A stretch of 63,402 bases of DNA, filler included, from Dimargaris cristalligena (Eukaryota): NCBI GenBank assembly GCA_003614675.1. It is 29 parts of 29 records of this genome, joined end to end, with 100 filler letters (N's around TTAATTAATTAA, not from the genome) between each part and the next. Parts side by side here need not be neighbours in the genome. Positions count along the whole stretch, not along the records: positions 30,861 to 32,954 come from ML004372.1; 28 more parts are not named here. The stretch is one strand, 5' to 3'. Position 1 is the first letter of the stretch. Each line of letters starts with the position of its first letter. The notes beneath the pieces were generated by a model, which worked only from the letters and a program-made list of their open reading frames with translations, had not been told where the DNA came from and did not search any database. This document shows, piece after piece, positions 26,103 through 63,402 of this stretch. The position numbers and the translations under genes were made by a program.

Positions 26103-26758
26103 GCTGAGTGCATTGGCTTGGGCTATATCAGATCGACGATGAGCGTTCGCGGTTAAAAGAGGGGAATTCCGGCTAAACCGAGGGTATGGAGTACAAGTTA
26201 CTGGATGTTAAGGAGGGTGTGACACAAGCTCATGCCTAATCAGTACATGCTGTACTGACATGGGTCGGGATAGATTATCCTCTCCACAAGACAAACTAGT
26301 CGCGACCTTCGTCATGTGATCCCTGCGCATCCTACAGTTACACCCTTGCAGGAGTATTCGGAAGACCTANNNNNNNNNNNNNNNNNNNNNNNNNNNNNNN
26401 NNNNNNNNNNNNNTTAATTAATTAANNNNNNNNNNNNNNNNNNNNNNNNNNNNNNNNNNNNNNNNNNNNCTCTCCCAAAAACTCTACTATTGATGGGAGT
26501 GACCCCATATCTAGTGAGTACTGGCAGTCATACTTCATAAGAATTAGGACTAGCTATATAATAGGTGTTATGGCTGCTCCGTAGATGCTCTTCAGTTTAC
26601 TAGAATTCCTACCACTAATATATTTCTTTATTACATCTCCTTTGCTATATTTCCCTAATAAAATGTGTATCTTACTTACTTAATTCAACAGTCTCATCAC
26701 TTGAATTTGTAACCTATTTCTTTTTTGCTATGCCACACTGTCCAATTCATTGGGCCAC

Positions 26759-27249
26759 ATGAGGGCCTACAATAATCTCATTGGGGGTTCCCTTAAGTTG
26801 AAAGGAAAAGGTGGGAGAGTTACTAAGTAAGTTCTACCTCCATCCCAGGGTGATTTGTTTACATATATTCCAATGAAATACCAGGGTGGTTTCTACCTCC
26901 TGCCTCAGTATTGCATTAGGCAAACCCATTTTACATTGAAACTGGAACTACACTAATCCCTCAGACTTGACATACCCCATTGAAGTAACTCACCTAACTC
27001 TTGCATATACTAATTGTGTCCCATCTATACATCTTTATAGCCCCTTACTCCACCACTTATAGAAAAAGTAAAAAATCCAGGAAGTTGAAAAAAGCTGACC
27101 ATAGTAGTAGTTGTAGTAGTGGTAAATTGATTGCTAAGTAATATGACAAGAGCCAAGACAACAATTCCAGTCAGATACTCACTCCCACTGAAGTATTAGT
27201 AGCCAAAACTAAGGCCAAGATTGAATCTGGGAAGGCACAGGAAAGATGG
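26759..27249 (+). pseudogene. FAM32A/DUF1754-like gene fragment, copy 2 (exon 26759-26826, intron 26827-27062, exon 27063-27249)
   Basis: MRAYNNLIGGSLKLKGKGGRVTK|KSKKSRKLKK...KTKAKIESGKAQERW; one in-frame TAA; no CpG in the exons. Confidence 0.75.
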
Positions 27250-27640
27250 GTAAATTTGTGGATTGATTATTTGTCAGTTTGGTGGCAACTGGGGACTAGT
27301 TAGTTAGCTGGGCTCTCTCATTCTGTAGCTCTAAGAGTGTTTTTACATTTCAATATATGCTCATTCTATTTGATTTGAAAATAGCTAAGGTTATACCCCC
27401 CTTCCCTGCTCTTTCTCTCCTTGGTATATATTACTATCTAAAACTAGTTTGATGGAAACTGTGGATACTGACATATATGGCCTTCTTTATTTGTCACCCT
27501 AGTTAACTACCCTTAGTCCATCAAGAGTCCTGAAGATAGGCTTCTAAAAGTAGGTGGGGCTTTAGACTCAGCTAAGTAGGCTACTAGCATTAGATACAGG
27601 TGTAATGACATGACCCAGAGATCTGGGAGGGGTTAAAGAT

Positions 27641-27863
27641 TGTTGAAATACTAAGGTCATAAAGGAAATAAAACTGGAAGTAAGGGAAGAAAGAAGCAAG
27701 AGGACAATAGGTACCTCTAGGTGGTTAGTTTTATTGAACTGTAATTTCTGTGGGGTGAAATATAAGTGGCTACCATGAATGATCTCATGATAGCAGAATA
27801 AACTAATGTAATTGGGTAAAAATAGGATAGAATAAAGAATATGTAGGAATATATTCTTCAACA
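27641..27863. mobile_element. Solo LTR family V
   Basis: TGTTG...CAACA ends; TSD AAGAT/GAGAT. Confidence 0.85.
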
Positions 27864-28209
27864 GAGATAGCCTACCAGGTTGAGATAACTATGGTCAAGA
27901 AACAGAAGTTAGCCTAAATGCCTATTAGTTTAGGGATGTAGACTGGGAGGGCAAAGGTAATACTACTGTCTCTTGTGGAGAGATTGATTGGGGATGGCTT
28001 GAGCAAAACATATGGAAAAAGTTTAACCAGGCTGTATAATGATAAATCTATTAAATGAGGTAAAAGTCTCTATTTAAAAATGAATCTCCCACATATTTCC
28101 CCATACATCCATTATTCAAAACTTTATACAGCTGCACTGAATTCCACCTATATTATAAACTGAAGATAGAGTGACTAGAGTATCAATATTGAAAGATATT
28201 AAATGGGTT

Positions 28210-28564
28210 TGTTACCCAGGTTAACCACTCTTAGTCTATTAAGAGCCCCAAGGATAGGCTTCTAATAGTAGGTGGGGCTTAGGCTTGGCTAAGCAGGCTG
28301 CTAGCATTAAGTACAGGCACCATACTAACTAATAAAGGCTATAAGTACAGGTATAGGTAAGGGATATGCAGTAGGCACACTTACTAGTTAGTAAAAAGGG
28401 AGTAAGTGTATATAAAGTTTATTGGGGGTAAACTAGGGGTTAGGATAAGCTAAGGAATCTAACTGGTCCCAATGGGGCCTAGTTATATATGTATAGGGAC
28501 AACTCCAGAGGGAGGTCCCGGGGGAAGGATATTACTAAGACTAGGGTAAGATAAATAAGCCAAC
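28210..28564. mobile_element. Degenerate LTR family X (contig-truncated)
   Basis: TGTTACCCAGGTTAACCACTCTTAGTCTATTAAGAG is a decayed form of the sequence starting at 34793. Confidence 0.85.
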
Positions 28565-30760: not shown

Positions 30761-30860
30761 NNNNNNNNNNNNNNNNNNNNNNNNNNNNNNNNNNNNNNNN
30801 NNNNTTAATTAATTAANNNNNNNNNNNNNNNNNNNNNNNNNNNNNNNNNNNNNNNNNNNN

Positions 30861-31267
30861 GGCTTGTCTGGATTCGCCTTGACCATTTCCATCGTTATGT
30901 TCGCACGCAAACTTAAATAGCCATAATCCCATGGTTTATCCGGGTTCGTGTTGATCACATCCATGGTAATGTCTGGACGAAAATTTAAACCTCTCAATTT
31001 CCACGGCATCTCAGAATTTGATGTGATCATTTCAATGCTAATGTTCTCATTTTCCACCAAATTCGAATAATCCCATAATTTGTTTGGATCCCCCTTGACA
31101 ATTTCCATAGTGATGTTGGGATTCAAACTCAAATAGCAGTGGTCCCACGGTTTTTCGGGATTTTCATTAATAGAATCCATTTTAATGTTTGGATCACAAC
31201 TCAAATCGCAATAATTCCATGGAGCGTTTGGATTGGCATTAAAAATAAGTTGCGATTGGTTCGACAT
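30861..31267 (-). CDS. 24-aa repeat protein (NPDKPWDYxxLSxNPNITME type), giant-virus-like, 3'-truncated
   Basis: Five full repeats plus the start of a sixth; intronless and AT-rich. Confidence 0.75.
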
Positions 31268-31471
31268 GGTGCAATTAGATTTGCATTGTTCTTCGTTATC
31301 CTTTGTGAATTTTATTGAATTATTATTTATTTATCGATAAAGATTTTTGTTTTTTTCAGTGATCAGCTAAGGGTTTAGCATCTGCGTTCTAATGCAAGAA
31401 GCACGTTATTTGGAAGCAATTATGTGTAAAAAGTTATTGCATTAAAAGAAAACATCCAACTATAGACAAAC

Positions 31472-32350
31472 ATGAAAAACATTTTATCGATAGATGTTGG
31501 CGTCAAAAACCTTGCTTTGTGTTTGTTGCAAGAGGATAATCTGGGAGAAATAATTGTAACATTCTGGAATCTTTATGATGTCACCAGGCTTCATACGGAA
31601 AAAATGGAGGAAACTGCGGAATCAATTGCGAATCAAGATGTCAAAATTAGGAAAGCAAAAAACAAGGATATTTCTGTAGCACTAGACGCTTGCAAAAACA
31701 TCATAAGAAAGACTGGAAAACCATGTGGGATAATGGCGCCCTTGAACTCTAGAAATAGAGCATATTGTGGGAAAAATGACCCAACAAAGAAACATAAGCC
31801 GGAGGATACACAGCATTGGTGTTATCTCATGTTGCAGAGTCTCCCATTGATCACAAACGATCTTTCCAGAATCATAGAATCATTGCCTGAAGGAATTGCC
31901 AATCTTCAGATTCTGATTGAGCAGCAATCCATGGATAACAAAAAGATCCTCCTTCAAAGCCACATTATTTTTGGACATTTTGTAACTTTGTACGACAACC
32001 TTGTTCCCGTTCGCTTTGTCCCAGCATACAATAAGCTCTGCATTTATGACGGACCAGAAATCGATTGTGCTCTCAAAACACCATACGCGAAAAGGAAATT
32101 CCTTCCTAGGAAACACACGGAATACTTTCTTGAAAAATTACCGAGTCTTTCATTGTGAAAAACATTCTTTCAAAGTGCAAAATCCAAACAAGATGATCTT
32201 GCAGATTCTTTTTTGCAAGGGTTATATTTTATCGAAGGCAAGGCACCGACATTAGTAACATATTCCCCTGACAATCATGAACAACCTATGAATACAAAAT
32301 GCAGAAAAGGAGAGAAAAGGTTAATTTTGGAACTGCGTCTGGTTTCCATT
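31472..32350 (+). pseudogene. RuvC-like Holliday junction resolvase (poxvirus A22/NCLDV type) with a premature TGA
   Basis: ILSIDVGVKNLA and ILIEQQ motifs. After TGA 32156-32158 the frame continues KTFF..KQDDLADSFLQG (DDLAD at 32192-32206). The 3' end is approximate. Confidence 0.85.
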
Positions 32351-32371
32351 AAAATTGTAAGCATTTTTCAA

Positions 32372-32954
32372 ATGGTAAATAAAGAAAAATAACAAAGCAA
32401 CAAATCTATCCTATTCTATGGAAATTGTCAATTAAAAGCTCTCAGCGAATATCTTTCTCAGCACTCTCATTTTGTAAACAAATACACTTGGGGAATTTTT
32501 TACATTCATGAAGATGTATATCACTCCTCAAAGAAATGACTGAATGGCTGGAAAATTGTTCCTGCATGATTTATCAGCATGTGTCTCCAACCCTTCTCGT
32601 TAGTAAAAATGATGCATCTATCGATTGAGATTCTTTCACGCCGCCTGAACTGATCAAAACATTTTCAATTAGACATACCATTTCTCTGCCAAGCTTGTAT
32701 TTCTCTGGCTATTTCCCAGAGCCCATTGGAGCAGACGCACCAGTGTTGAAGAAGATGATAAAGTATAAAAATCGTTTCCTTCCATTGAGCCACATTATCC
32801 CTAATTATTCCTTGAATTCAAAACTTTGGGCTTACATTAATCTTGGTTATGATATTGGGGAACTTTGGAAGCATGTTACCAAAGATGATTTCGTTCATAA
32901 CGCAATAACAGAAAGCAATCTTTTGACAACCTGGCAAGACTTGAAGTAAATTGG
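32372..32954 (+). pseudogene. WcbI-like polysaccharide biosynthesis protein, disrupted
   Basis: ILFYGNCQ, CMIYQHV and PSLYFSGYFP motifs. TAA at 32390, frameshift near 32530, TGA at 32626. Confidence 0.65.
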
Positions 32955-35149: not shown

Positions 35150-35349
35150 NNNNNNNNNNNNNNNNNNNNNNNNNNNNNNNNNNNNNNNNNNNNTTAATTA
35201 ATTAANNNNNNNNNNNNNNNNNNNNNNNNNNNNNNNNNNNNNNNNNNNNCTGCTTCTTCATGGTGATGCGATCCTTGTAAGGTGACGGAGGTTACAGCGC
35301 GGGCGCACGGGTGACGGGAGATGGGATCACCCGTGCGGTAGTTGTTGAA

Positions 35350-35493
35350 TCAGTTGGTGCTGATTACGCGAGAGATCGTCGTGGTCGTGGTGCTCGCCAC
35401 CACAGTTCGGCCGACCCAGGTGATCGTCCACGCGGTCAAGAAGACCACGCTGAGGCCGATGAAGTGGGCGTCGAGGAAGTCGATGATCCCCAT
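35350..35493 (-). CDS. 47-aa small membrane protein, phage-like
   Basis: MGIIDFLDAHFIGLSVVFLTAWTITWVGR...; its ATG lies 1 nt after the upstream stop; high GC3. Confidence 0.6.
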   Translation of the reverse strand: MGIIDFLDAHFIGLSVVFLTAWTITWVGRTVVASTTTTTISRVISTN

Positions 35494-35494
35494 G

Positions 35495-35830
35495 TTACGC
35501 GGCTTCGGCGGTGTCGGTGGTCTTGGCAGACTTGCCGATCTCGTTCGCGATGCCCTTGGTCGACTGCCCGATGAGCCTGAGCAACGTGCTGTCGGTCTCG
35601 TTGTCGGCGAACATAGCCAGGGCGGCGATGATGAATGCCTGGTCGAAGAGCATCGCTTTCACGATGTCGCTCTCGACATTGGCGTCACTGAGCTGTTTGA
35701 CCTCGGTATCGCTCCGCGCCCCGACTGCGACGAGCGCGGCACAGAGGGGCTCGCCAGCCGCCAACAGCGTCTTCTTCAGCGCGGTCAGAATGATGGCGTT
35801 GTTTCCGAGAATGGTATTGGCTTCGAGCAT
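35495..35830 (-). CDS. Hypothetical phage-like protein, 111 aa
   Basis: AAAAGGA ribosome-binding site; co-oriented with its neighbours. Confidence 0.7.
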   Translation of the reverse strand: MLEANTILGNNAIILTALKKTLLAAGEPLCAALVAVGARSDTEVKQLSDANVESDIVKAMLFDQAFIIAALAMFADNETDSTLLRLIGQSTKGIANEIGKSAKTTDTAEAA

Positions 35831-35904
35831 AGTAGTCCGTCCTTTTGGTGGCGTGAGGGAATGGCAGCCGTCAGAGCGCCCCGTTCTCTGACGGCCGATA
35901 GACG

Positions 35905-36309
35905 TTACGGCTGCGGCTTCGGCGGCTGCCAGGGCATGGTCGTGACGAACAACCGGCTCTGGAAGGGCTGCGCGAAGACGGTGACTGCGCGGATGGTGTC
36001 GATGTCGCTCTCCGCATCGGCCGCGTTGCCGCGACGATCTGCGCCGACGATCAGGCCTTTGCCAGCGAACGGCTGGTGGCCTGTCGCCATGTGAAACCAG
36101 CGCTCCGCGTTCTTCATGATGCCCTCGTCGTCGACGAAGATCGCATCGCGCCCCTTGAGGACGCCCGCGTAGGCCGTGGTGAACGTGGTGACCGGCATGC
36201 TCTCATGCGACAGCACGCGGTAGTAGGTGTTGATATCGTCCCCGTCGACCTCGACGTGTTCGATCTTACAGGCGAAGGGGTCGATCAGGATGGCTTTGAC
36301 ATTGGGCAT
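35905..36309 (-). CDS. DUF3846-family protein
   Basis: KAILIDP, IFVDDEG and PFAGKGLIVG.D..G motifs. Confidence 0.75.
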   Translation of the reverse strand: MPNVKAILIDPFACKIEHVEVDGDDINTYYRVLSHESMPVTTFTTAYAGVLKGRDAIFVDDEGIMKNAERWFHMATGHQPFAGKGLIVGADRRGNAADAESDIDTIRAVTVFAQPFQSRLFVTTMPWQPPKPQP

Positions 36310-36326
36310 CGGCGTGACTTTCGCTT

Positions 36327-36389
36327 TGTGAGTCGATTGTGAGTCCTGTGAGTCGAGTTAGGTATTTCGACTCACAAGATCAGCGTCAA
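36327..36389 (-). promoter_or_regulatory. Putative promoter/operator: TTGACG plus four TGTGAGTC boxes
   Basis: Direct copies at 36327, 36338 and 36347 and an inverted copy at 36369; 10-bp perfect inverted repeat. The -10 element is non-canonical. Confidence 0.55.
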
Positions 36390-36393
36390 GGTG

Positions 36394-60981: not shown

Positions 60982-63402
60982 GGTGTAGAGTTAGGGGGTC
61001 GAGCAGGGCAGTAGAAGGGAAGAAAGAGGAACTGAGGCTAGGTAAGGCAGCGCGAATCAATTAAGTACAGCTTTTGAGTTAAGGCCCAATGTAAGGCAGA
61101 GCAACATCCCTTACCGGGCCACATAGCCCACTCACCATGGCGCGGAAATTAATGTGCGTGGGAAACAGTTGCCACTTTGGGGATGGGGATTGGAATATAT
61201 AAATGAATTGGCCTTGCCTATGGTAAATATTTAATTTAGTNNNNNNNNNNNNNNNNNNNNNNNNNNNNNNNNNNNNNNNNNNNNTTAATTAATTAANNNN
61301 NNNNNNNNNNNNNNNNNNNNNNNNNNNNNNNNNNNNNNNNGGGGGGGGGGGGGGGTATTATCGGGCCGCCGATAACACAAAAAATAGCCGTCCCTTCTTG
61401 TTGTACAACGCGGCAATGACGTCGGAGAAATAGAACCAGTTCAGGCGACTACACCAATAGATCGAGACGATTTAAGATGTATGTAGCGTACGCGGACGTT
61501 CCACTGCTGTAGGACCATGACTCTCGGCCATCGATTTTCCCGTACCATACAGTGGTGATTTCTTGGCATCGTGCTGGGATTATGAAGGGAGAGGAGGCCC
61601 TGGGATAGAAGAAGAGGGAGGGAGAAGGAGGAGGAGGATCGCCGACCCTGCTCTTCTTACTCAGCGGAATCCGCGTGTGCCCTGAGAGTAAAAATACAAA
61701 GACAGTTATTTAATACGCTCACACTAGAGCACATGAACTATAATGTACCGGCGTTAAACCCATATGCGGCCGGAGGGGGTATATGACTGGGCCTTTTTCG
61801 TCGTATTATATATATATATATATATCAAATTATCGCGGGATTCAATTAGTCGCCGAGGGCGCGTCCCTTGCTTGACACCGCCGTTTGCTTTGATTTGATT
61901 TTGGCCTGGTTTTTCTCCCTTTTACTTGATTTTGTGGCATAAATATACAGCACCAAGGGGCTGATAATGATGGGCGGGATCCCAGCCACTGAAACCCTCT
62001 CCCATCCCAGTCGGCCTCAGGGGTCGCCTAAATGATGTGCCAGTGTGGGGAGGAAGAATAGAGCTCTACAGCTGGGTGCGAGGAGGGGAGGGGGGAGTAT
62101 GTCCACGTTGACTCCCCCCCCCCTCACATTGTGCAGGTGGGAGAGATGATGGTACATAATTGTGTATTATATAGAATCCCTTTGAGCTGGGGGACCGAGA
62201 GGAGACAGGATATTATTATTGACAACTGCCCCGCGTATTAGTCAATTTGTGTGTTTCTTCGCAGGAGTCCGTAATTAATCGGTGTACTATTTAGAGGATT
62301 ATAATCGATTAGGTCTTAAGGGTTCTCCATATAGTATGCTACTTAACCCCAATCGCCCAAGGTTAATTGAACTTGACCGTTATCCTGGGCGCATCCTCTT
62401 CCCCCAGCTTTTTGGGTCGGCGATGCATCTGCCCTAAATTAAGGGTGGTGGGGTATGCCCGTTGTTTTAGAGCCAGGCCGTTTCCCAGCGGGAAAACGAA
62501 AATAAAAAAAGGTACAGTGTTTTATTTAAGAAGATGGTTAAGTGTGGGGCGTGAGTTGAACAGGCTCATTTCACATGGCATAGTCATAATTGTTGGCCAG
62601 TGTCCTCGGCGAGTGGGAAAGGGACCACACTGCACATTAAGCAGGGATCGGACAAAAACAATGGCAAACAAGGGTGACGGAAGGATGTCACTCTTAGGTG
62701 TGGATGCGGCGAGCGGAGAGAGAGAGAGAGAGAGAGAGAGAGTAGCGTAAATATTATGCAATCGTAAATACAAATGAAAGTGCGGATGGGATGTGAGGTG
62801 AAGTGAAAGTGTAGAGGGCATTTGAAAATCCAGTGGACTCTAAATGGGGAAGAAGGGGTACGGGAGGGTACCCTCGTCAAGAATTGGGCGTGAAATGAGA
62901 GTGAATCGGAGTGGCTAAACATAGTAGGTAATCAATATAATGCGTGAAGGGAAATAAGCGAATAAAGGCGGAGGGGAAACGGGGAAGGGGCAGTCAAAAA
63001 AATAAAATGTAACGTAGTTTCAAGAGTGGGGTGGGCGTACAAGTTACCGGGGATAAAGGTATGAGTGTGAGGGGGAATATACATGATATACTAAATACAT
63101 ATAATGGCTGGCATTATTGAGCGAAGAGAGTCTCCCAGTGGGGGGCATAGCGCGTATTAGGCATTAGGTTAGGGTAAGAAACGAAAGAGGTAATAAAAAA
63201 CGGGCATTTCCATCAGTTGGGGCTAGTAAGAGGGCTGGGCAGTGGGTTCAAACACGGATGGGTTCAAAGAGTCGTTTTGAATAAACGATTTGCGGTAATC
63301 CATGGTCCAACCCTTTACCTGCCGGGTGAGGCGACGGGTCAGATTGCGCAGGCGGTTGGGGGCTTTCGCCGCACTACTGGAGGGCTCGGAATCGGACTTA
63401 TG

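Follow-up and report, generated by a model that had tools for sequence, protein, structure and literature searches.

A decayed three-gene fragment with giant-virus affinities on a 2-kb orphan contig of a Dimargaris cristalligena genome assembly

Three tightly packed, intronless genes, the second and third of them broken, fill positions 30861-32954 of a 63,402-nucleotide (nt) stretch of DNA from the Dimargaris cristalligena assembly GCA_003614675.1, which we call the window. The segment is exactly one whole contig of 2,094 nt (ML004372.1), with one end inside gene 1, which encodes a protein of 24-residue NPDKPW repeats, and the other 5 nt past gene 3, a WcbI-like gene; between them lies gene 2, a resolvase gene of the A22/RuvC type with a Cys-rich insert. 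An initial annotation had proposed this gene content and its placement, and both were confirmed (Table 1). The window as a whole is made of 29 contigs of 2,062-2,115 nt each, sorted by falling size and split by 28 identical 100-nt linkers (2116-2215, 4329-4428 and so on to 61241-61340) that carry stops in all six frames. Because the contigs are joined artificially, neighbors in the window cannot be used as evidence of integration, and the description of the segment as lying in a fungal assembly fails as a statement of physical linkage, since the sequences beside it are unrelated contigs behind linkers. None of the 28 other contigs resembles this one by blastn or tblastx, and it is the sole contig of the 29 that matches the giant-virus loci we fetched.

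Table 1. Features of the 2,094-nt contig and of the linkers that flank it, in window coordinates.
Feature	Position	Strand	Basis
Artificial contig joiner, not biology	30761..30860	.	44 N + TTAATTAATTAA + 44 N
Gene 1, NPDKPW repeat protein	30861..31267	-	135 open codons, 3' part lost at contig end
Divergent intergenic region between genes 1 and 2, 204 nt	31268..31471	.	No open reading frame with family match
Gene 2, resolvase of predicted RuvC/A22/Ydc2 fold, part before stop, 228 codons with D8 and E150	31472..32158	+	Pfam, homologues, tree
Cys-rich (CCCH-type) insert of gene 2, His to Asn here	31691..31795	+	Residue conservation, relative's model
In-frame TGA at conserved Trp of gene 2	32159..32161	+	Trp column; zero-difference contigs X1 record 5, X3 record 19
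KQDDLADSFLQGLY, C-terminal catalytic acidic motif of gene 2, stranded behind stop	32186..32227	+	D241, D242, D245 in 120/120 relatives
Family C-terminal tail KRREKVNF of gene 2, in shifted frame	32305..32328	+	Tail pattern search
Gene 3 piece A, N-terminal part of WcbI-like protein	32396..32536	+	Pfam WcbI profile positions 2-28
Site of 2-nt surplus, gene 3 frame lost	32517..32519	+	26 nt versus 8 codons; X2 sister copies
Gene 3 piece B, middle part of WcbI-like protein	32530..32946	+	Pfam WcbI profile positions 43-99
Artificial contig joiner	32955..33054	.	One of 28 identical linkers

The resolvase gene carries most of the information about where the fragment came from. Its product matched the Pfam families Ydc2-catalyt (PF09159) at 38 bits (cutoff, 23) and Pox_A22 (PF04848) at 26.3 bits (cutoff, 22), with the best stretch of the Ydc2 match covering only positions 1-44 of 258. 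Protein searches returned 966 homologues at an E value of 1e-3 or lower, headed by a tight family of about 40 members at 40-57% identity (E values from 2e-88, the best, to 2.5e-47); a gap follows, after which the list resumes at 1e-24 and continues below. The RuvC-type catalytic set is complete in this family, consisting of the N-terminal Asp of SIDxGxxN, a central Glu, and a C-terminal DDxxD. In an alignment of 120 relatives, E150, D241, D242, and D245 were present in all 120 and D8 in 119, the remaining sequence having an alignment gap at that position. Codons for all five residues persist in the window copy, the last three behind an in-frame TGA and untranslatable. An intact resolvase of the tight clade (P0016, 312 amino acids [aa], 47-48% identical to the window copy) sits on a 2,042-nt NCBI contig.

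An AlphaFold model of another intact relative, P0002, which is 57% identical to the window copy, adopts a RuvC fold with a predicted local distance difference test (pLDDT) score of 89. Foldseek matched the model about equally well, each at a probability of 1.00, to Ydc2 of Schizosaccharomyces pombe, RuvC of Thermus, and the fowlpox resolvase, and the family profile likewise lies about as far from Ydc2 (E value, 1.6e-4) as from the fowlpox enzyme (4.5e-4). The Cys-rich insert sits between strand 3 and the first long helix and forms two short beta-hairpins in the modelled relative (block pLDDT, 89-97). Its cysteines C74, C85, and C99 occur in every one of the 40 close relatives and, among 80 distant ones, in 74, 76, and 75, respectively, so the insert is a general feature of this resolvase branch rather than a peculiarity of one copy. 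Position 102 is a histidine in all 40 close relatives too, and the window copy has Asn there, a change that fits decay of a family member rather than non-membership. By profile, catalytic residues, and the fold of its relative, gene 2 is assigned to the RuvC/A22/Ydc2 junction-resolvase superfamily, with junction cleavage as the predicted activity of the family.

Searches of viral sequence and structure placed the resolvase nearest to giant viruses. In a library of predicted viral structures, the best match was the Holliday-junction resolvase of Marseillevirus LCMAC202 (E value, 1.2e-13), accompanied by resolvases of Faunusvirus, Yasminevirus, Klosneuvirus, medusavirus, Pandoravirus, a phaeovirus, and Pithovirus, the named giant-virus matches spanning E values of 1e-13 to 1e-7; Ydc2 of S. 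pombe aligned with the model at about 11% identity and an E value of 1.4e-6. IMG/VR gave at least 326 related stretches at 23-32% identity, and 30 of the 80 that were kept lie on contigs named as metagenome-assembled genomes of giant viruses (GVMAGs). Look-alike clusters in the Atlas are labelled 94-100% viruses and serve as leads only. A scan of prokaryote genomes with the resolvase gave six distant matches, on contigs of metagenome-assembled genomes. The neighbors read at two matching loci, L173 and L001, include helicases, phosphatidylserine decarboxylase, patatin, and DUF5767, with no capsid or polymerase hallmark within those stretches.

A tree of 107 rows was built from the window copy, 40 close relatives, 27 distant ones (every third of 80), 38 IMG/VR sequences, and one metagenome locus, L081; the IMG/VR rows comprise 28 GVMAG-named loci (of 30, less two that matched only in part) and 10 others from the top of the list. 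The window copy falls beside P0001 and P0006 inside the tight clade of 42 rows, which has a Shimodaira-Hasegawa-like approximate likelihood ratio test (SH-aLRT) value of 98, and none of the 38 IMG/VR sequences lies inside that clade. A scan of IMG/VR with gene 2 likewise showed no member of the clade among the matches listed. The tree contains no cellular Ydc2 or Cce1 sequence, so the question of a cellular origin is answered only indirectly, by percent identity, by coverage of the profile, and by structure. Each of these speaks against a mitochondrial or bacterial resolvase, and none of them groups gene 2 with Ydc2/Cce1 or with bacterial RuvC; beyond the tight clade, the nearest relatives identified are sequences from IMG/VR or GVMAGs and named proteins of giant viruses rather than cellular ones.

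The metagenome scan produced a single close relative of the resolvase, at 44% identity, on locus L081, and this locus supplied the only gene context that we obtained for the tight clade. It is a GC-rich contig of 3 kb that carries, at L081:172-2964, an intact resolvase relative, a 157-aa open reading frame (ORF) without a family match, and an intronless two-domain PCNA gene directly adjoining the resolvase.

The repeat protein of gene 1 leads toward the same viruses. Its 11 leading residues are followed by five complete units of 24 residues, in perfect register with one another, and by the beginning of a sixth, and against the family consensus NPDKPWDYxxLSxNPNITWEIVxA the five units match at 10, 16, 10, 7, and 16 of 20 positions each. 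Tandem Repeats Finder detected no 72-nt period in the underlying DNA. The gene is still open, and it is partly degenerate. Protein searches found 15 relatives, of which the best named one, at 44% identity, belongs to the chytrid Blyttiomyces helicus and is annotated as a hypothetical protein (P0124, 237 aa, on a 2,038-nt contig). IMG/VR yielded 285 related stretches that align with the whole query at 42-52% identity and have E values down to 9e-41, and 35 of the 73 distinct loci kept are on GVMAG-named contigs, that is, in giant-virus bins. Several of these bins hold two or three copies of the family, which marks gene 1 as belonging to a multigene family of repeat proteins that is typical of giant viruses; the sequencing runs, too, have dozens of contigs stacked on the repeat units, which indicates a large paralogous family there as well. 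The DUF7430 (PF24207) profile scores the window protein at 18.7 bits, below the cutoff of 27, and the relative P0123 at 33.4 bits. Taken with the structural matches of the resolvase, the IMG/VR and GVMAG relatives support the affinity to giant viruses (Nucleocytoviricota) that had been proposed for both proteins, and a giant-virus origin of genes 1 and 2 is well supported by these comparisons.

Neither of the other two genes could be translated into a whole protein today. The in-frame TGA of gene 2 replaces a Trp that is present in 16 of 17 aligned relatives and, in the larger set, in 38 of 40 close and 44 of 80 distant ones. The C-terminal tail of the family follows in another frame, which places a frameshift between about 32230 and 32305, in the interval from catalytic motif to tail; the tail pattern fits 19 of 40 close relatives and occurs once among 126,800 six-frame codons of the window, at the site listed in Table 1. 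The stop that ends the tail in relatives is replaced by GGA, and in addition to the invariant His that has become Asn, three conserved Gly residues are altered. Of the highly conserved positions, the window copy keeps 61 of 66 (92%); for intact relatives the median is 98% (range, 83-100%). Gene 2 reads as a pseudogene with little drift so far.

The two pieces of gene 3 lie in different frames and give co-linear matches to WcbI (PF18588) of 16.1 and 20.5 bits, below the cutoff of 29.2. An exhaustive HMMER search of 1.84 billion representatives found six relatives of 276-305 aa, the best with 40% identity and an E value of 7.8e-21; four of them score 75.6-99.4 bits on the Pfam WcbI profile, among them P0138, which is 40% identical to gene 3, with 99.1 bits. 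The YGNCQ motif is in register with these relatives, which start 5-6 residues earlier; no ATG is found where they begin, and an in-frame TAA stands just upstream at 32393-95. From a conserved Val to a conserved Trp, the window copy has 26 nt where relatives have 8 codons, and the extra 2 nt are absent at 32517 from diverged sister copies in run X2 (three contigs, 800 of 846 depth units), so the frameshift is independently marked as a 2-nt surplus of the window copy. A TGA at 32626-28 falls in a column occupied by E, S, A, A, and S in five relatives and never by Trp, and a TAA (32947-49) closes the gene about 110 residues before the point where its relatives end. The claim that two genes are broken by stops and a frameshift is thus borne out, with more breaks than had been listed.

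The product of the WcbI-like gene was probably a sugar- or capsule-modifying enzyme. Four probes of giant-virus sequence for a gene of this kind came back empty: local tblastn against 239 loci (2.6 Mb) found none, scans of IMG/VR with P0138 and with P0142 found none, and a motif scan gave six matches of which none was WcbI-like. A word-indexed search with the gene gave no match. These searches lend no support to the earlier view of this gene as viral.

All or part of the contig occurs in six sequencing runs from three studies under three organism labels, in every case as assembled contigs, so depth and linkage read from them are weak evidence. In study P1, records 5 and 7 of run X1 cover every lesion with zero differences, as does record 19 of run X3 in study P2; X4 (study P3) adds four pieces, likewise without differences, over 30861-31993. 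The window assembly may derive from X1, and X3 comes from another study; reproduction of the lesions in run contigs from two studies bears out the pseudogenization as real. The exact copy has a depth of 2-10 in the runs, whose contigs pass the ends of the window contig by 93 nt on the left (X4 record 21) and by about 230 nt on the right (X3 record 19). The exact pieces found under three labels could reflect material that the samples share, carry-over from one library to another, or related elements whose hosts are related as well.

Besides the exact copy, the runs hold diverged ones. Record 14 of X3, 3,576 nt long at a depth of 332, is a collinear sister copy that covers the three genes, shows about 240 differences, and lacks the IEQQ catalytic region of the resolvase because of a 191-nt gap. 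At least one further diverged collinear variant is present in X2, at depths of 503-872. These relatives, about 87% alike and at depths of 332-872, sit in runs of one label. Compared with the X3 sister copies, the window copy shows 110 transitions and 124 transversions. The bias expected of a process like repeat-induced point mutation (RIP) was looked for in the same comparison and set aside, as no marked bias appeared (61 changes of the C>T and G>A type versus 49 of T>C and A>G).

In composition, the contig has a GC content of 36.5%, an observed/expected (o/e) ratio of 0.70 for CpG and 0.54 for TpA, and a TpG plus CpA excess of 1.28. The initial annotation had contrasted its retained CpGs with transposable elements, and the contrast holds: CpG o/e is 0.11-0.58 on four retroelement-bearing contigs, and 0.03-0.16 on several other AT-rich contigs. 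The contig looks like fairly recent coding DNA with mild CpG loss, a profile that does not by itself separate virus from host.

The rest of the window is heterogeneous, with GC contents from 34% to 63% across its 29 contigs. Contigs 17-19 (35250-41711) stand apart from the AT-rich remainder, with GC contents of 62-63% and CpG o/e of 0.98-1.33; they include one DUF932 ORF (contig 17) and one frame of 695 codons that fills a whole contig and encodes a Slo-like RCK potassium-channel domain, and they may come from another genome or compartment. The lowest CpG ratios, 0.03-0.16, belong to contigs 13 (26470-28564), 20 (41812-43892), 27 (57012-59076), 7, 11, 26, and 5, and suggest that part of the assembly has undergone heavy methylation and deamination of cytosines, or else a RIP-like process. 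Fragments of Ty3-type long terminal repeat retroelements, with RNase H and the zinc-binding and core domains of integrase, occur on the minus strand of four contigs (7308-8111, 14213-14788, 18398-19771, and 52728-54743), those of contigs 9 and 25 sharing an identical domain order. Other ORFs encode WD40 and histidine phosphatase domains. At the right end of contig 14 (30620-30760), about three direct copies of a unit of about 55 nt (…gtgaagttaaaaca.atat.tattc.tttatctcgaaactaacttgtcc…) run into the contig end and are probably a tandem repeat that broke the assembly.

We favor, with a probability of roughly 0.6, the reading that the contig is a dead giant-virus fragment, one of several diverged and separately damaged copies of an endogenized region in the sequenced eukaryote, likely a chytrid-like fungus. 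Several diverged, separately broken copies in one sample have the look of endogenous viral regions and fit these better than they fit a replicating virus. Enzymes of the poxvirus A22 family resolve Holliday or concatemer junctions during replication of the viral genome, and by analogy the ancestral resolvase may once have cut such junctions in a giant virus. After endogenization of the viral region, several copies would have diverged and decayed independently. In the copy described here the enzyme can no longer be made, the stop dropping DDxxD, the tail being frameshifted, and the insert His lost, and the WcbI-like gene lacks its start, its frame, and its end. With these two genes dead and the repeat gene partly degenerate, the fragment probably does nothing today. 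Of the earlier proposal of a pseudogenized endogenous viral element, the viral genes (two of the three) and the inactivating mutations stand; the word endogenous does not stand on the contig itself, which contains no host junction. Its residence in a cellular genome, and the identity of the host, we infer.

Several results weigh against this reading. The contig includes no host DNA, and no read or contig was seen joining it to host sequence. Its exact sequence occurs at the same low depth under three organism labels in three studies, which may point to carry-over or to an environmental source common to the samples instead of a single host genome, and the runs are small and very uneven in depth, so copy number cannot be read from them. 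The assignment to a fungus draws on the one named relative of gene 1 and on the statement of the initial annotation. No tight-clade resolvase was recovered from IMG/VR with two close relatives as queries or with a clade-specific motif; with the clade of about 40 members missing from that catalog, the viral nature of the close family is judged from context, fold, and distant kin. Four probes without a WcbI-like gene leave gene 3 with no demonstrated viral relative.

A contig that bears virus-like genes only, 2 kb long, orphaned and at low depth, with no junction to host DNA, might instead come from a free or episomal giant virus that infected the organism or was sampled with it, and collinear copies at depths of 332-872 in some runs are what a replicating virus might produce. 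Giant viruses carry some pseudogenes. At least seven disabling changes in two of three adjacent genes are nevertheless hard to place in such a genome, the more so as the resolvase is one of the two: a replicating virus would be expected to keep an enzyme whose catalytic residues are near-invariant in 120 relatives, and the high-depth sister copy itself lacks 191 nt of the catalytic core. We regard a free virus as improbable. Somewhat less improbable, if still unlikely, is that the DNA is endogenous to another eukaryote in the samples, such as a protist or alga present as a contaminant, or reached these data by carry-over between libraries, which would make the fungal link spurious. Zero-difference pieces that recur under three labels and three studies, always at a depth of 2-10, suit this explanation, as does the mixed composition of the window contigs, with their spread in GC content and the ORF on contig 17 of DUF932, a family that is mostly bacterial or plasmid-borne. 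However, the three labels may stand for the same material or for material that is closely related, gene 1 has its best named relative annotated in a chytrid assembly, and NCLDV-like DNA (that of nucleocytoplasmic large DNA viruses) is documented in zoosporic fungi in the available text of two papers (PMC13533422, PMC7017919).

Two further explanations would remove the lesions rather than relocate them. The low depth of the exact copy invites the suspicion that stops and frameshifts are sequencing or assembly errors, which becomes very improbable once each of them is found with zero differences in contigs from two studies (X1 records 5 and 7, X3 record 19). The least credible account takes the genes as intact under genetic code 4, in which TGA encodes Trp as in fungal mitochondria, and the resolvase as a working mitochondrial enzyme of the Ydc2/Cce1 type. 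The TGA of the resolvase does fall exactly at a conserved Trp, and Ydc2 outscores Pox_A22 in Pfam, but the column of the second TGA never holds Trp, and two frameshifts, a missing start, and an early TAA lie beyond the reach of any code and already refute the idea; moreover, the Ydc2 profile is covered over 44 of 258 positions only, and the nearest relatives are viral.

The endogenized-copy reading that we prefer would make the contig a further example of something already in print, namely giant-virus fossils in fungi and giant viruses of zoosporic fungi. According to the available text of Gong, Zhang and Han (2020; PMC7017919), endogenous NCLDV fragments of PolB occur in several fungal phyla, and some of them carry premature stops and frameshifts. 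Myers et al. (2026; PMC13533422) report, in the part of the paper available, genes for the major capsid protein (MCP) of giant viruses in 17 of 141 genomes of fungi, mostly zoosporic, with proviral contigs as long as 350 kb and a family, Mycodnaviridae, that has PCNA in its core set, and the accessible portion of a 2026 preprint (10.1101/2025.04.19.649669) describes double-stranded DNA viral regions in 153 fungal assemblies, with pseudogenization common. The suggestion of a possibly undescribed fungus-infecting lineage has been overtaken by the fungal NCLDV fragments and the Mycodnaviridae as these sources present them (PMC7017919, PMC13533422). Neither a resolvase nor Blyttiomyces helicus is mentioned in the main texts of PMC13533422 and PMC7017919, whose supplementary tables may already list the organism or contig described here. 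A literature search met neither Blyttiomyces helicus nor WcbI in connection with giant viruses, which does not prove their absence from print.

If the host linkage is true, the fragment would add another record of an early-diverging fungus once infected by a giant virus, and a well-defined resolvase clade absent from the main viral catalog would be a usable marker with which to trace a viral lineage in metagenomes. A doubtful extension of this idea is that the tight clade (about 40 members at 40-57% identity) and the rare WcbI-like gene mark a distinct giant-virus lineage, repeatedly endogenized, or duplicated afterwards, in a chytrid-like fungus and maybe other than the described Mycodnaviridae; some tight-clade resolvases sit on contigs of 100-370 kb. 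Alone, a dead fragment of 2 kb adds little beyond the papers of 2020 and 2024-2026. It does hold a lesson in method, as its apparent fungal context was a product of concatenating unrelated short contigs, and findings that reach across such linkers are unsafe.

Among known systems, the giant-virus A22/RuvC resolvases, such as those of Marseillevirus LCMAC202, Klosneuvirus KNV1, and Acanthamoeba castellanii medusavirus J1, have in common with gene 2 the RuvC fold and the D/E/DDxxD residues, and the CCC(H) insert is common to most relatives examined; identity to the IMG/VR members is 23-32%, and the window copy differs from these enzymes in belonging to a separate tight clade (SH-aLRT, 98) and in being a pseudogene. 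The poxvirus A22 resolvases (fowlpox, 6P7A/6P7B; canarypox, 5E6F) are alike in fold and catalytic motifs, with target-normalized TM-scores of 0.68-0.72 to the P0002 model, but are about 150 aa long, lack the Cys-rich insert of about 75 residues, and show 13-14% identity. Mitochondrial Ydc2/Cce1, represented by S. pombe Ydc2 (1KCF), has the same fold, the best PDB match by E value, and the top Pfam score, yet it is set apart by a profile match of 44 in 258 positions and 11% identity, and gene 2 has no cellular gene context. The relatives of gene 3 match the full profile of the WcbI capsule-biosynthesis family (PF18588) and make up a very small side-branch, and gene 3 itself is fragmentary and scores below the Pfam cutoff.

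The closest parallels for the fragment as a whole are the endogenous NCLDV fragments of fungi (PMC7017919) and the Mycodnaviridae proviruses (PMC13533422). In the available text of both, those systems are recognized by PolB or MCP on long contigs with host context, whereas here a 2-kb orphan contig carries no hallmark marker gene. What they share with it, as far as those texts describe them, is the combination of giant-virus genes, early-diverging fungi, and in some cases stops and frameshifts. PCNA, part of the Mycodnaviridae core set in that paper (PMC13533422), is also the gene that adjoins the close relative of the resolvase on L081.

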